This document shows, one piece after another, positions 30,416 to 53,530 of a stretch of 54,595 nucleotides of DNA. The notes beneath the pieces were generated by a model. It was given only the letters and a program-made list of their open reading frames with translations, did not search any database and was not told the DNA's origin. Position 1 is the stretch's first letter. Each line of letters begins with the position of its first letter. Source of the stretch: a virus (lineage: Duplodnaviria > Caudoviricetes); the IMG/VR virus record IMGVR_UViG_3300027872_000007, positions 1-54,595 of that record; one strand, 5' to 3'. Both the position numbers and the translations under genes were made by a program.

Positions 30416-30443
30416 ATAATACTCCTTGCAACCCTCCAGTCAA
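30416..30443 (-). promoter_or_regulatory. Candidate sigma70 promoter for the scaffold-capsid operon
   Basis: TTGACT-16nt-TATTAT upstream of the scaffold RBS. Confidence 0.45.
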
Positions 30444-30859
30444 AGAGACATGCAATCGAACGCTTCGGGCGTTTCCGTCACACAAAGAAGTTGCGTATCG
30501 GAAATGACCACCCAAAGGGTGCCATCCTGCGTCCGAAACTTCTCGCCGTCATGCTTTCCAAACTGCACCCAATCGCCAACGACGCATCCGTGCGCCTGCA
30601 TCAACTTCAATTGCGATCGGGTAACCGCTTGAAAACACAACGGTCCCATGTCCCTAACCATGCCAACGTAAGTACTGAACTCCCTTTGCTCCAGATACTC
30701 ATCCGGCATCTCGATACCACCAGCAGACATCTTTGGTGGCTCCGGGATCTGCACCGCGATGCGCCACAAATCGATCTTCCCTGGGTAGTTCTTTTGTACA
30801 AACGTGTCCAGCAGTGTTGCTGGCGCCTGCGCATCTTGCGCCTCAGCTTCGCTATTCAC
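30440..30859 (-). CDS. groES: GroES-like co-chaperonin
   Basis: WRIAV..KMSAGGIEMPD..VGMVRDMGP..VGDWVQFGKHDG..ISDTQLL. Likely GTG start at 30859. Confidence 0.8.
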   Translation of the reverse strand: MNSEAEAQDAQAPATLLDTFVQKNYPGKIDLWRIAVQIPEPPKMSAGGIEMPDEYLEQREFSTYVGMVRDMGPLCFQAVTRSQLKLMQAHGCVVGDWVQFGKHDGEKFRTQDGTLWVVISDTQLLCVTETPEAFDCMSL

Positions 30860-31052
30860 CTGTTTCCTCCTCTCCTTCAACCTGCTCAAGAAACTCGCGA
30901 GTAATCTCCATGATCCAGCGAAGTTCGGCGTTCCTGCCGACCAACTTCATGTACTGATCATGCGGCACACCTTTGTCCATGTTGGCGTGATTCTCCGCGA
31001 GACGTTCCTTGGCTCGATTGAGGACGAGTTCTGCAATCCTAAGTGCAGACAT
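30852..31052 (-). CDS. Small helical protein upstream of GroES
   Basis: G..HDQYMKLVG..AEL pattern in a conserved position. Confidence 0.65.
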   Translation of the reverse strand: MSALRIAELVLNRAKERLAENHANMDKGVPHDQYMKLVGRNAELRWIMEITREFLEQVEGEEETGE

Positions 31053-47598: not shown

Positions 47599-47703
47599 CT
47601 ATACGTGTCCGCCCTGAAAGCCGGTAATTGCCGGCAATATAACAAAGAAAACCAGCAACGCCAGAAACACGATGATAGCCACAACAATTTTGAGTGTTTT
47701 CAC
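47599..47703 (-). CDS. 34-aa membrane peptide (not in ORF track)
   Basis: GTG start after the GGAGG SD; MKTLKIVVAIIVFLALLVFFVILPAITGFQGGHV. Confidence 0.6.
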   Translation of the reverse strand: MKTLKIVVAIIVFLALLVFFVILPAITGFQGGHV

Positions 47704-47705
47704 GA

Positions 47706-47752
47706 CTGTACCCTCCTATATAGATACTACGATAACAGAACAGCGATCTCAA
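47706..47752 (-). promoter_or_regulatory. Sigma70-like promoter plus GGGTACAG leader heading the small-ORF operon
   Basis: TTGAGA-17-TAGTAT-10nt-GGGTACAG. Confidence 0.6.
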
Positions 47753-48438
47753 GTGATCTCGTGAGATTCGCCTTCAATTGCCCTGGCCCTGGCTGCCTTC
47801 TTCTGGATCGCCTCCAGCGTCTGTATGACAGCTTCCAGCTCATCCTGTGGCATAGAGCTGAAGTCCAGCGACCGAGCCTGGCTCTGGCGCATGTTCAGAT
47901 CCAGCATCAGCTTCTCGGAGAACATCCCCAGGTGGCGACCCAGATTGACCAAGGCGCTGTGTTTGTCATGCAAAACGTACCTGTAATCCAGCTCCTTGCC
48001 GTCCTCGGTCTCGATCTCCTCGGTCGTCCAGGAGTCCACAGCGAGGGCCTGCGGATTGGTCAGCTCGTTCACTGGCCTGCCGATCAGGCGTATGCCACCG
48101 TTCACCTTCACGACTCGAACATAGTCCTTGACATTCTGAAAGCCGATCGCTGCCATCTCATGCAAGATCCTGGTCGTCGTCACATCGTACTGGGCCGCGG
48201 CCACTTCATTCTTCTTCTCTTGAAGAAACGCCAGGAACGGACGCAGATTGGCCGCCAACTTGTGGGATTTTATCTTCGATGTGGTTTTGGAGTACCCGGC
48301 ATCGATCATTGCTGGATACGGCTTCATTGCGTGTTGGACCACGTTTATCGCGAAGTCCAGTTGCAATTTAGTTCGTGGCCAGCCTCTGGTGTTGCGTGGT
48401 TCTACCTGGATCACTTCTGCTGGGGCGCTCACACACAT
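47749..48438 (-). CDS. terS: Terminase small subunit
   Basis: AMIDAGYS HTH, VTTTRILHEMAAIGF, LHDKHSALVNLGRHLGMF. Confidence 0.85.
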   Translation of the reverse strand: MCVSAPAEVIQVEPRNTRGWPRTKLQLDFAINVVQHAMKPYPAMIDAGYSKTTSKIKSHKLAANLRPFLAFLQEKKNEVAAAQYDVTTTRILHEMAAIGFQNVKDYVRVVKVNGGIRLIGRPVNELTNPQALAVDSWTTEEIETEDGKELDYRYVLHDKHSALVNLGRHLGMFSEKLMLDLNMRQSQARSLDFSSMPQDELEAVIQTLEAIQKKAARARAIEGESHEIT

Positions 48439-48752
48439 GCTCCATTGTTTCCCGGCAGCCGCAGCCGGCCCACCGAGGATGTGTCGGGTAGGTCTTATGA
48501 TACTCGCAAGGCCGGTAAACTTTCACGCTTCTCATTCCGATCGCAATCGAATCTCACACAGGTCGCCCAAGGGGATCACCTGCATGGTCGAGATGCCCTC
48601 CACTTTGATGCCAAGAAACTCATCGATCAGCTTCGTGGCCGTCTCCAACCGAGTCATCCCAAAGTCACGCTTCCCGAACTCCTCGGCTGGCACTCTGAAT
48701 GACATTGTGTTTGTAATCACAACGCCCCTGATTACTTTGATGATCGTAGTCC

Positions 48753-48809
48753 TTGCAATCCCGTAGTCAGACGCGTATTGTCTCATCTGGGTACAGTCAG
48801 TCAAGGAGC
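48753..48809 (+). promoter_or_regulatory. Sigma70-like promoter plus GGGTACAG..GGAGC leader
   Basis: TTGCAA-17-TATTGT-7nt-GGGTACAG. Confidence 0.6.
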
Positions 48810-48814
48810 AAGAC

Positions 48815-48985
48815 ATGGAAATTCTCTTTTGGATACTTGTGATCTACGTCACACTCGACATCGCCGCTTGCGTATATGTTGTCTATCAGCGCGGCGGGAT
48901 CAAGGCCACCGTCCGTGAAGTTCGCGACAACTTAGGATACACGCGGCCTTCAGAGGATGACGAAGATGTTCACAGTGAATGGTGA
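48815..48985 (+). CDS. 56-aa membrane protein (not in ORF track)
   Basis: AAGGAG SD; MEILFWILVIYVTLDIAACVYVVYQRGG... Confidence 0.65.
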   Translation: MEILFWILVIYVTLDIAACVYVVYQRGGIKATVREVRDNLGYTRPSEDDEDVHSEW

Positions 48986-49124: not shown

Positions 49125-49148
49125 AAGGGCCCTTCGGGGCCCTTTTTA
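49125..49148 (+). terminator. Intrinsic terminator
   Basis: AAGGGCCC-TTCG-GGGCCCTT followed by TTT. Confidence 0.85.
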
Positions 49149-49163
49149 TTGTCAAATGAGAGC

Positions 49164-49218
49164 TTGCAATCATGTGGTCATCGTGCATAATCGGTCCTGG
49201 GTACAGCAGCAACGGAGC
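49164..49218 (+). promoter_or_regulatory. Sigma70-like promoter plus GGGTACAG..GGAGC leader
   Basis: TTGCAA-16-CATAAT-7nt-GGGTACAG. Confidence 0.6.
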
Positions 49219-49223
49219 AAATC

Positions 49224-49418
49224 ATGAGGAACCACGAACTGATCTCAGCCATTGCCGAAGAATCGGTAGAGCTTCGAGACCTCTCAACAAGCGGTGGCGT
49301 CAACGAGCAGGCATTCGATCTTTGGGCGCACCAAGACCGCCTGCAATCCATTCACGACGAACTTGTACAGCTCGGCACAGCCATCCGGATCGAAGCCAAA
49401 AATCTCAGCTCATCGTAG
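49224..49418 (+). CDS. Small helical protein
   Basis: GGAG SD downstream of the promoter. Confidence 0.65.
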   Translation: MRNHELISAIAEESVELRDLSTSGGVNEQAFDLWAHQDRLQSIHDELVQLGTAIRIEAKNLSSS

Positions 49419-50944: not shown

Positions 50945-51066
50945 ATCAGACTAAATACCTCTTTTACCACCGACCAAAATCATGCGAAAAATAAATTTTC
51001 AGGCCAAATCGACTACACCATCAAAGGGCTCCAGCCCCAAGATTGTCCGATTGTCACCATGTCGTT

Positions 51067-51120
51067 CTGCAACGCTGTTGTCAAAATGTTATAATGATCA
51101 TTCGGGTACAGCTTTGGAGC
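51067..51120 (+). promoter_or_regulatory. Extended -10 promoter plus GGGTACAG..GGAGC leader
   Basis: CTGCAA-17-(TGn)TATAAT-8nt-GGGTACAG. Confidence 0.7.
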
Positions 51121-51125
51121 GGTCA

Positions 51126-51395
51126 ATGGAAACCTCAATCGTCTACTACGACCCCTCGAACATCGGGCAAAAGACTTGCCTGGTCATCGAGTCACGCAAG
51201 CGCCTGCACATCGTCATGATCAAGGGCAGGGGCTTGGTCCACTTATCAATTCCGGAATCGGAAGCTCAGTACATGCGCCCAGCCGGAGTCGCCTTGAAGA
51301 AAGGACTGCGTTCGTTCGGCGGTATCGCCAGACGGAAAGGATCCACAAAGGCAGCCAAGACCTGGTTAGCCAAAGCAAGGGAGAGCGTCTCATGA
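51126..51395 (+). CDS. Basic hypothetical protein
   Basis: Start METSIVYYD after GGAG. Confidence 0.6.
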   Translation: METSIVYYDPSNIGQKTCLVIESRKRLHIVMIKGRGLVHLSIPESEAQYMRPAGVALKKGLRSFGGIARRKGSTKAAKTWLAKARESVS

Positions 51396-51745: not shown

Positions 51746-52647
51746 AACAAACATTCATCAACAAGAATTTCAAAGACGAGTCGTTGGTCATCATCAGGCT
51801 GGCAAACGAAATCATCGACGAGTACCGCTCTCAGGGCTTCCTCCTGACGCTGCGGCAGCTCTACTACCAGTTCGTCGCCAGAGGGTGGCTGCCGAACACG
51901 CAGCAGTCCTACAAGCGTCTGGGCTCGATCATCAACGATGCCAGGCTTGCCGGCATGGTGGACTGGAGCGCGATCGAGGACCGCACCAGGAACGTGAAGT
52001 CGAACTACCACTACACCGGCCCACGTCAAGCCGTCCAGGATGCGCTCGACACCTACGAGATTGATATGTGGGCGAACCAGCCTGAGCGTGTCGAGGTGTG
52101 GATTGAAAAGGAAGCCCTGTCAGGCGTCATCGCAAATGTCTGCGACGAAATGGACGTGCCCTACTTCGCTTGCCGCGGCTACGTTTCGCAGTCGGAACAG
52201 TGGAGAGCCTATCGTCGCGCACAGTACTACGGACACGAGAAAAGCCAGACCACTGTCATTCTCCATTTTGGAGATCACGACCCATCTGGCATCGACATGA
52301 CTCGCGACAACCAGGACCGTTTGGATATGTTCTTGGAAGATGATGAGTATGTAGAAAACGTCACGGTAGAACGCCTGGCGCTGAACATGGATCAGGTAGA
52401 AGAATTTAATCCGCCGCCGAATCCTGCCAAGATAACCGACAGCAGATTCGCCGGCTACGCCGCCCAGTACGGTGACGAGAGCTGGGAGCTAGACGCGCTG
52501 GAACCGAAGGTAATGACAGACCTGATCCGCCAGCATGTGCGACAGCACCGTGACCCGGCACTCTGGTCGGACAAAGAGGAGGAGCGGGACGACCATAAGC
52601 TCCAGCTCCAGGACATCATCGACGATTTAGGAGAAGACGATGAATAG
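51742..52647 (+). CDS. TopoVI-A/Spo11-like wHTH-TOPRIM protein
   Basis: LTLRQLYYQ, VEVWIEKEAL, RGY.S, HFGDHDPSG, WELDAL. Confidence 0.75.
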   Translation: MKQTFINKNFKDESLVIIRLANEIIDEYRSQGFLLTLRQLYYQFVARGWLPNTQQSYKRLGSIINDARLAGMVDWSAIEDRTRNVKSNYHYTGPRQAVQDALDTYEIDMWANQPERVEVWIEKEALSGVIANVCDEMDVPYFACRGYVSQSEQWRAYRRAQYYGHEKSQTTVILHFGDHDPSGIDMTRDNQDRLDMFLEDDEYVENVTVERLALNMDQVEEFNPPPNPAKITDSRFAGYAAQYGDESWELDALEPKVMTDLIRQHVRQHRDPALWSDKEEERDDHKLQLQDIIDDLGEDDE

Positions 52648-52939
52648 GAAGCAGGAAATCAAAGAGATAAGGCTAGTCCTTAATTATTCGCGCAAGGTGT
52701 ACGGAAGCTGCAATCATTCCTACATAGGCTGCATGGCCGACTCGCGCCTTCACTCGATCCTGGGATGCACGAGGAACCAACAGCTCGTCCCGGAACAAGG
52801 ATACGACGAGCTATTCGAGAACGCGACAGACGATCAAATCGACGAAGGTCACAAATACGTCGATCACTGGATCCCGATCGCCAAGGAATACATGGCTCCG
52901 CGAGCCAGAATCTCCAGGGCAATCGCCCAGTTCAGCTAA
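52640..52939 (+). CDS. Hypothetical protein
   Basis: AGGAG SD; overlaps the upstream gene. Confidence 0.6.
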   Translation: MNRKQEIKEIRLVLNYSRKVYGSCNHSYIGCMADSRLHSILGCTRNQQLVPEQGYDELFENATDDQIDEGHKYVDHWIPIAKEYMAPRARISRAIAQFS

Positions 52940-52966
52940 AAAAGGGCCCTCGCAATGAGGGCCCTT
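52938..52966 (-). terminator. Intrinsic terminator (U-tract on minus strand; possibly bidirectional)
   Basis: AAGGGCCCTC-5nt-GAGGGCCCTT with an A6 run on the left. Confidence 0.8.
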
Positions 52967-53094
52967 CTCGAATAAAGCGACCGGAACTCTTTCAGCCAGA
53001 ATAGGCTATCGGGAATGCGGGTACAGTCACGGAGCCTGATAGGATTTCGTAGTTCCGGGTCGCCAGGGGTTCAGTCGCCGGGCTTCCTATCCAT
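52938..53094 (-). ncRNA. Candidate structured sRNA antisense to the GGGTACAG/GGAGC leaders
   Basis: Candidate promoter TTGTCG-18-TAATGT, long complementary arms, a loop containing CUCCGUGACUGUACCC, and its own terminator. Confidence 0.45.
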
Positions 53095-53098
53095 GGCG

Positions 53099-53530
53099 TT
53101 ACATTAGCACAGTCGGCTCCAGCTCGACAACCACCATGCCGTCAGTAACGATGTTGCTCGTTCGCCAGACGTGATGCTCCACGATCTGGTAGTCATCCAT
53201 AAATACGCCGGCTTTTTGCAGCGCATCCTCCAGCATCTTGAACAGATTCGACGTGTCCCGCTTCCTGCGGTCAGGCGGGAAGGTCCACATACGCATCACC
53301 AGAGGGCAGCTCCAATTCATGGCCGCCTTGTCCCGCATCACAATGGACTGGACGTTACGATGAAATTCCTTGGCCTGAGATGTCGGATACGCCTGGACGA
53401 ATTGCTTCGGCGCCCTGCCAGCAACCCGGTAGCCAGTGTAATGATTCGCGGTCGGCGGCCACGGTAACTCCAGTCTCAATCCAGATGGTTTACTACCGGA
53501 ACCGATGACTTCCAATTCTCCCTGCTCCAT
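53099..53530 (-). CDS. rusA: RusA-family Holliday junction resolvase
   Basis: LELPWPPTANHY..PPDRRKRDTSNLFKMLEDALQKAGVFMDDYQI. Confidence 0.88.
   Translation of the reverse strand: MEQGELEVIGSGSKPSGLRLELPWPPTANHYTGYRVAGRAPKQFVQAYPTSQAKEFHRNVQSIVMRDKAAMNWSCPLVMRMWTFPPDRRKRDTSNLFKMLEDALQKAGVFMDDYQIVEHHVWRTSNIVTDGMVVVELEPTVLM

Follow-up and report, generated by a model that had tools for sequence, protein, structure and literature searches.

Some of the regulatory RNAs encoded by phages act on one neighbouring transcript, as do P1 c4, P4 CI, P22 sar and lambda OOP. The c4 RNA is encoded in the immunity operon, upstream of the sites it targets; RNase P matures it, and it blocks a small first open reading frame (ORF), icd, and, via Rho polarity, the genes downstream of it. 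P4 CI is a small structured RNA encoded in the transcript it controls and processed from the leader of that operon; it is complementary to repeated sites of the early transcripts and shuts them off by premature termination. In enterobacteria, small RNAs (sRNAs) such as MicL and DapZ derive from 3' untranslated regions (3'UTRs), with their promoter inside the upstream coding region, and phage T4 shuts off its early mRNAs collectively and post-transcriptionally with proteins, RegA and RegB, acting via translation-initiation regions or GGAG. According to one review, the loops of the phage c4 RNA pair with phage mRNA sites around the ribosome-binding site, and other phage regulatory RNAs act mainly on host mRNAs (PMC12197685). 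For icaR, a 3'UTR anti-Shine-Dalgarno (anti-SD) sequence is reported to be complementary to the SD of the 5'UTR of the same mRNA (PMC3868564). The present analysis concerns an element located directly after the rusA-like gene of an uncultivated marine tailed phage, in the linear IMG/VR virus record IMGVR_UViG_3300027872_000007 (54,595 bases, estimated completeness 78%), hereafter called the window. Our preferred reading, held with some reservation, is that this element specifies a new family of antisense sRNA that pairs with leaders shared by several operons of the phage and is either transcribed from a promoter of its own or a 3'UTR derivative.

By analogy, P1/P7 c4 and P4 CI appear to be the functionally closest known systems. 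Like c4, the element has a core complementary to phage mRNA sites that include the ribosome-binding site, here in four leaders. Its place, however, is behind the last gene of a DUF1376-DnaB-RusA operon, at the 3' end, where it has its own intrinsic terminator, and whereas c4 has two sites in one transcript, the putative targets of the element are a leader common to several separate operons. Like P4 CI, it is complementary to repeated early leaders and is encoded in an operon it could control, but it shares with CI neither sequence nor model similarity. The sequence-only reading of this DNA had named the P1 c4 and P4 CI RNAs as the known analogy, and membership of their family is not borne out by Rfam, where the C4 family is RF01695. 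No match was obtained for the whole window at the gathering threshold, and the region 52800-53250 searched at E <= 10 gave no C4 and only four terminator-level matches (STnc320, isrB, sau-6072 and MicL), all far below gathering; that to MicL covers the terminator only, scoring 13.2 bits where gathering requires 56. The resemblance to c4 and CI is therefore functional only.

The other systems resemble the element in part. As in MicL and DapZ, it shares the terminator of the gene upstream (rusA), has a candidate promoter in the last codons, a conserved seed and a U-rich stretch by the terminator; unlike them, it is phage-encoded and its putative targets are the phage's own leaders. An icaR-like arrangement can be read from the sequence of two relatives (G001 and G003), the start of the window's own operon lying beyond the window end, but the complementarity of the element reaches several other operons and it may have a promoter of its own. 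The proposed effector differs from T4 RegA and RegB in being an RNA and not a protein. A literature search, which was not exhaustive, found no comparable phage RNA matched to a multi-operon leader. The apparent novelty lies in one seed that fits a leader common to many operons, its own operon included, and the element is provisionally filed as a new RNA family.

A structured element downstream of rusA

The rusA-like gene (53099..53530, minus strand) encodes a Holliday-junction resolvase (Pfam RusA E = 1.2e-12; PHROG 34 E = 9.5e-24) and is the final gene of a minus-strand operon; in the upstream direction, the window reaches only 1.5 kb beyond rusA, short of the 5' end of this operon. The element (53071-52938, minus strand) comes after the rusA stop codon and extends to the end of an intrinsic terminator, in a gap of 159 nucleotides (nt) between two convergent genes, rusA on the minus strand and a 99-aa ORF (52640-52939) on the plus strand. 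A variable spacer (53072..53098, minus strand), containing a GAUAGGA specific to the window, separates it from the stop codon. The RNA body (52977..53064, minus strand), delineated with RNAalifold and pair counts, is closed by a stem, P1, in which GGCGACCCGGAACU, or GGCGACC(C)GGAACU (53064-53051), pairs with AGUUCCGGUCGC (52988-52977) with one bulged C. Inside it lies a central imperfect hairpin, P2 (53003..53037, minus strand), where AGGCU (53037-53033) pairs with AGCCU (53007-53003). The 5' strand and apex of P2 carry the anti-leader/anti-SD core GGCUCCGUGACUGUACCC (53019..53036, minus strand), which is complementary to GGGUACAG(UCA) at the 5' end of the leader and to GGAGC at its SD; the seed parts within this core are CUGUACCC and CUCC. 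P1 is followed by a single-stranded UUUAUU (52971..52976, minus strand), kept in 17 of 18 variants, possibly a U-rich site of the Hfq type. The intrinsic terminator (52938..52969, minus strand) consists of a G+C-rich hairpin, GAAGGGCCCUC-AUUGC-GAGGGCCCUU, and a run of six U ending near 52938. Only the minus (rusA-sense) strand has this U-run. At 52937-52945, the stop codon that ends the convergent plus-strand ORF lies immediately next to the A-tract of the terminator. The predicted minus-strand fold reaches -62.9 kcal/mol (z = -3.47), a value equalled by none of 200 shuffles; on the plus strand z is -1.89 and 10 of 200 shuffles fold as well.

These features agree in large part with what had been proposed from the letters of the window. 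The pairing arms and the strong terminator are both present, and P1 and the terminator are conserved with compensatory changes. The inner stem CUAUCAGG/CCCGAUAG can be drawn in the window but contains an A.C mismatch, and only 3 of 18 variants could form CUAUC/GAUAG. The alternative pairing of GAUAGGA (53092-53086) with UCCUAUC likewise exists in the window, but GAUAGGA lies in the unalignable spacer and is not conserved.

Relatives of RusA with 80-83% identity were found in seven IMG/VR contigs, each with the element directly after rusA, and a pattern scan detected it in 17 metagenome contigs, several of them the same contigs as the IMG/VR records. In total, 18 distinct variants were collected and the element is always directly 3' of rusA. 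The spacer that precedes it measures 17-67 nt in 16 measured variants and cannot be aligned, whereas the element aligns throughout. The 18-nt core GGCUCCG(U/C)GACUGUACCC is invariant in all 18 variants bar the U/C at one position, and its flanks vary. Across the alignment, 593 of 611 pair cells (97.1%) are canonical on the rusA-sense strand as against 539 of 611 on the opposite strand; both-side changes are seen in seven pairs, 58 cells are G-U, and pairing falls to 38-59% of cells when partners are slid. The covariation score is 0.173 compared with 0.126 for shuffles and was reached by none of 500 shuffles. The clearest covariation concerns the closing pair of P2, which is U-A in 10 variants, A-U in 7 and U.U in 1, with 196 of 198 P2 cells canonical. 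P1 has 190 of 197 canonical cells, one compensatory change from G-C to A-U (in L078) and a change from A-U to G-U in four variants. Compensatory changes also occur in the terminator stem, where canonical cells number 189 of 198 when read as the sense strand and 172 of 198 when read as the antisense strand. No variation is seen in the inner pairs around the anti-leader, which are thus neither supported nor contradicted. With a covariance model built from the 18-variant alignment, each record yields a single full copy, scoring 122-166 bits on the sense strand, and nothing above 20.7 bits elsewhere; six members folded singly adopt the same architecture (z = -3.4 to -6.0). These observations support the description of a conserved, strand-specific, structured non-coding element ending in an intrinsic terminator.

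One metagenome variant, L082, departs from the others: according to the alignment its P1 3' arm is rearranged to CCGGGCUCGCC, which still pairs with the 5' arm, and CAUCUACUC replaces the UUUAUU linker.

The distribution of the element is narrow. Genome contigs scanned with the element pattern gave no match, and a RusA search of the same type of contigs returned a single distant match (39% identity over 36 residues, in a Rhodospirillaceae metagenome-assembled genome) and no prophage copy; among INPHARED phages, blastn matched nothing to the 1 kb around the element. Ten more distant loci (L103-L112), whose topoisomerase-like protein is 44-60% identical, contain neither the leader motif GGGTACAG described below nor the element. 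A loop-free frame pattern, CCTGGCGACC..ATTCTGGC, designed for members with an altered loop, retrieved 38 stretches, of which seven are real and all already known, and 31 are chance occurrences in coding DNA. A second conserved block was discarded as a second seed, its complement GCCAGAAT being unenriched (53 matches with at most one mismatch against 48.5 expected).

A coding explanation was rejected on both strands, the 30-aa plus-strand ORF 53015-53107 being without its ATG in relatives and the minus-strand mini-ORFs of the spacer being unconserved in sequence. These mini-ORFs nevertheless recur: in 13 of 18 variants, 2-4 codons opened by ATGAA (encoding MK, MNS, MNR, MKG or MKF, then a stop) sit just upstream of the conserved ACCGACCCC, for instance in L002 (3436-3495), L005, L006, L008 and L076. 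In long-spacer variants, ACTGGTGA precedes the mini-ORF. The window spacer has ATGGATAGG... (7 codons) in its place, and in three short-spacer variants no mini-ORF is present. The mini-ORFs may be a minigene or a processing signal, or be due to chance.

The shared leader and its predicted pairing

The motif GGGTACAG occurs five times in the window, where 0.71 copies are expected, and none of 100 shuffles reaches five. The four copies outside the element, at 48789+, 49199+, 51104+ and 47713-, belong to modules with a common layout: a -35 box (TTGCAA, CTGCAA or TTGAGA), 16-17 nt, a -10 box (TATTGT, CATAAT, TATAAT or TAGTAT), 7-10 nt, GGGTACAG, GGAG(C) and a start codon. Module 1 (48753..48817, plus strand) reads TTGCAA-17-TATTGT-7-GGGTACAG (48789-48796), followed by GGAGC (48805-48809) and by ATG 48815, which opens a 56-aa ORF. 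In module 2 (49164..49226, plus strand), TTGCAA-16-CATAAT-7-GGGTACAG (49199-49206) and GGAGC lead to ATG 49224 and a 64-aa ORF, behind which comes a 377-aa ORF; the sequence-only reading had spoken of a capsid-mimic operon, a label that finds no support here, the 377-aa ORF having PHROG 1362, whose function is unknown, as its sole match and none in Pfam. Module 3 (51067..51128, plus strand) is CTGCAA-17-TATAAT-8-GGGTACAG (51104-51111), GGAGC and ATG 51126, and its operon extends through a topoisomerase-like ORF (PHROG 6247 E = 1.8e-110) to 52939. Module 4 (47701..47752, minus strand) consists of TTGAGA-17-TAGTAT, AGGA-GGGTACAG (47713-47706) and TC-GTG 47703, heads a 34-aa membrane-like ORF and has the motif placed between SD and start codon. 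A simple consensus scanner independently flagged the promoters of two of these four modules. In five related virus records, 21 GGGTACAG sites were counted against 2 for a reversed-pattern control, with the same promoter and leader layout. Among the 13 distinct non-element sites read in relatives, eight have GGAG and a start codon downstream, four abut an ATG and one looks like a chance occurrence inside a gene.

The fifth copy in the window (53019+) is the reverse complement of the element loop and retains, in leader orientation, GGGTACAGTCACGGAGCC. Neither in the window nor in any relative does it have -35 and -10 boxes at the module positions or a start codon after GGAGCC; it is therefore an anti-leader and not another leader.

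As had been noted from the window, the loop is complementary to the shared leader and to GGAG(C), the complementarity extending over 11 nt for the 48789 leader (GGGUACAGUCA) and over 10 nt for that of 47713 (GGGUACAGUC). Predicted duplexes of the element with the leaders at 48789 (-26.6 kcal/mol), 49199 (-26.0 kcal/mol) and 51104 (-24.8 kcal/mol) are the top three of 84 translation-start regions, the next best being rusA itself (-20.5 kcal/mol) and 47703 of module 4 (-20.2 kcal/mol). Each duplex combines a helix of 8-11 bp on the first bases of the transcript and one of 5 bp on GGAGC, separated by a small internal loop. In a scan along the whole sequence, the three leaders rank 3rd, 4th and 6th of 21,822 scan windows; the element's own site and a coding site at 30775(-) rank above them.

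The relatives extend this arrangement to the operon that carries the element. In G001 and G003, this operon contains a DUF1376 protein, a DnaB helicase (DnaB_C E = 1.9e-97), further ORFs and RusA, and it opens with TTGACC-17-TACCAT-9-GGGTACAG...GGAG...ATG; no sense-strand terminator was flagged between this leader and the element. Leader (L093:2028) and element (L093:5769) share a strand. On the sequence, the anti-leader thus sits at the 3' end of one operon that it could repress. Divergent from the replication operon lies a gene for a RecT-family recombinase (E = 1.6e-30; L093 866-2011, minus strand; homologues in L016 and L017), which is headed by a GGGTACAG leader in G002 and G005; the exact motif was not found upstream of the RecT gene in G001. 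Since the leader heads the replication operon as well as the RecT gene, it marks genes of DNA metabolism, that is early genes.

Three observations concern the leader modules as such. Their promoters share a block, CTTGCAATC-N-TGTGGTCA (window 48750-48775, 49161-49180 and 51064-51083; also L013, L016, L017 and L020), often with TTGTCAAAT further upstream, and a phage transcription factor that acts on the same regulon could use this block as its operator. An intrinsic terminator of the GGGCCC type, AAGGGCCCTTCGGGGCCCTT-TTTATTG, lies at 49125-49150 on the plus strand between modules 1 and 2; its hairpin is of the same style as that of the element, and each module therefore seems to be a short transcription unit of its own. 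Finally, an interpretation of GGGTACAG(T) as a pause-type -10-like element of sigma70 (TACAGT) was set aside, two of the four window leaders reading TACAGC.

Proposed mode of action and competing explanations

Under the antisense reading, a regulatory RNA of approximately 135-155 nt would be made from the rusA-sense (minus) strand, with its 3' end at about 52938 at the intrinsic terminator. It would fold into the long closing stem P1, the central imperfect P2, the U-rich linker and the terminator, P2 presenting GGCUCCGUGACUGUACCC for pairing with two parts of early mRNAs, the 5'-terminal GGGUACAG(UCA) and the GGAG(C) SD, with a small internal loop in between. Its targets would be the window operons at 48789, 49199, 51104 and 47713, transcribed from near-identical sigma70-like promoters and, in relatives, also the RecT gene and the DUF1376-DnaB-RusA operon itself. 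Pairing would keep the 30S subunit off the first ORF of each operon, in most cases a small one, and probably also set off decay or Rho polarity on the genes downstream. The predicted outcome is a negative feedback together with a joint shut-down of early replication and recombination genes, the RNA probably acting as a single brake on early gene expression.

Such an RNA could arise in two ways, by transcription from a weak promoter of the extended -10 type, situated in the last rusA codons, or by cleavage of the replication-operon transcript. The candidate promoter (53101..53130, minus strand), TTGTCG (53130-53125), an 18-nt spacer and the extended -10-like TG-C-TAATGT (53109-53101), is present as the sequence-only reading had it; with the last T of TAATGT the rusA stop codon begins, and the predicted transcript start falls near 53094. 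The box TGnTAnnnT across the stop codon is kept in 18/18 variants despite differing last residues of the protein (VLM, VLL, VLS, MVS, MVL, VVS). At these positions Leu is encoded by CTA in 13 of 13 cases and Val by GTA in 5 of 5, and neighbouring codons vary synonymously. TTGTYG is found 18 nt upstream of the -10-like box in both C-terminal length classes. A promoter of its own is plausible on this basis, and processing from the operon transcript is equally possible.

Several points weigh against the antisense reading. The three public sequencing runs that contain the window sequence are seawater metagenome DNA runs, one of them possibly its source, with no RNA run among them. The candidate promoter is weak (4/6 and 3/6 consensus matches, 18-nt spacer) and went unflagged by the simple consensus scanner, which missed the terminator of the element too; conservation of the promoter box argues for a constraint beyond coding, one that is not fully separable from the coding constraint. 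Leader transcripts should begin at or just before GGGUACAG, an expectation drawn solely from the promoter spacing. At a cut-off of -20 kcal/mol, five start regions are matched, and 5% of shuffled seeds do as well. The coding site at 30775(-) forms a better duplex (-29.0 kcal/mol) than any leader. Part of the anti-leader is taken up, in minimum-energy folds, by short and interrupted helices whose pairs never vary, so that it may not be freely accessible. The 18 sequences represent a narrow related clade, which can inflate covariation statistics. Covariation of loop and leaders, suggested beforehand as a check, is not seen in the relatives, where both are invariant, and the lone U-to-C loop variant (L005, L007 and L077) has no matching leader change in G001 or G003. 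Because no variant has a changed loop, the relation between loop and leader rests on joint invariance and complementarity and not on covariation.

The 30775(-) site itself, GCGGUGCAGAUCCCGGAGCC (30740-30775, minus strand), is located inside a GroES-like ORF (30440-30889) in the coding region of the structural module; it is probably due to chance and could be a further target.

The leader at the head of the G001 and G003 operons, with the GGGUACAG...GGAG layout and no flagged sense-strand terminator before the element, also fits an action in cis only, in which the element would be the 3'UTR of the replication-operon mRNA, pair its anti-leader/anti-SD with its own 5' leader and tune the translation or stability of that operon alone, with no free sRNA. 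The terminator common to element and operon, the weakness of the internal promoter and the precedent of icaR in Staphylococcus aureus (PMC3868564) point the same way. Yet at least three other operons of the window, convergent or divergent, begin with the leader, as do more in relatives, which a purely cis role fails to explain, and the -10-like box at the rusA stop is kept in every one of the 18 variants; we hold this explanation to be unlikely. Rather improbable in our estimation is that GGGTACAG is a DNA site, bound by a phage or host protein at early-promoter starts, with the copy after rusA serving as operator, decoy or roadblock and the RNA structure acting only as a terminator-proximal stabiliser. 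This possibility, raised by the sequence-only reading as a protein-bound operator, finds support in the fixed distance of the motif from the -10 box in most modules and in the further conserved promoter DNA (TTGCAATC..TGTGGTCA), which suggest protein recognition, and the public runs holding the sequence include no RNA run. Against it, the spacing of motif and -10 box ranges over 7-10 nt, the motif is non-palindromic, the flanking helices covary with G-U tolerated on one strand only, and the conserved block at the element covers the SD complement (GGAGCC), an RNA-level feature, without the promoter DNA.

It might also be supposed that a structured 3' end merely terminates or stabilises the rusA transcript, the leader-like stretch being an inherited fragment of an inverted module devoid of regulatory role. 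Strong hairpins are common at operon ends and the many module copies of the phage could seed such a duplication. The 18-nt core is, however, the most conserved part of the element, invariant while the neighbouring helices and spacers change; it lies within a covarying hairpin distinct from the terminator, and what was kept of the module is the leader and SD portion, not the promoter. We regard this explanation as very improbable.

If the antisense reading holds, the element would be an RNA counterpart of the collective shut-off of the T4 RegA/RegB type and would constitute an RNA-level feedback loop, since its own operon is included. It would add a compact regulator to the module of sigma70 promoter and leader, and it would explain the invariant 8-nt transcript start in these phages. 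It would also give Rfam-type annotation of marine viromes a new RNA family. A broader version, which we consider doubtful, makes the RNA a master regulator of all early operons (replication, RecT, topoisomerase-like, PHROG 1362 and small membrane proteins) that drives the switch from early to late expression and is itself made from the 3' end of the replication operon it also targets. Should the phage be temperate, the RNA could replace a protein repressor in immunity or superinfection exclusion; no integrase or repressor was recognized among 61 scanned ORFs of the window, whose record is 78% complete.

Genomic surroundings

The window has a G+C content of 53.8% and encodes structural genes of tailed phages, namely large terminase, portal, major head and tail fibre; ARAGORN detected no tRNA or tmRNA gene in it. 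On the plus strand, the terminator hairpin of the element is followed only by UUCUCGAAUAAAG. Read-through RNA from this strand would consequently be fully complementary to the element and could serve as a sponge or as an RNase III substrate. The minus-strand ORF 48532-48816, upstream of a small-terminase-like gene (47749-48438), overlaps leader module 1 (48753-48815, plus strand); its real start probably lies further inside, and the two are tightly arranged in divergent orientation.

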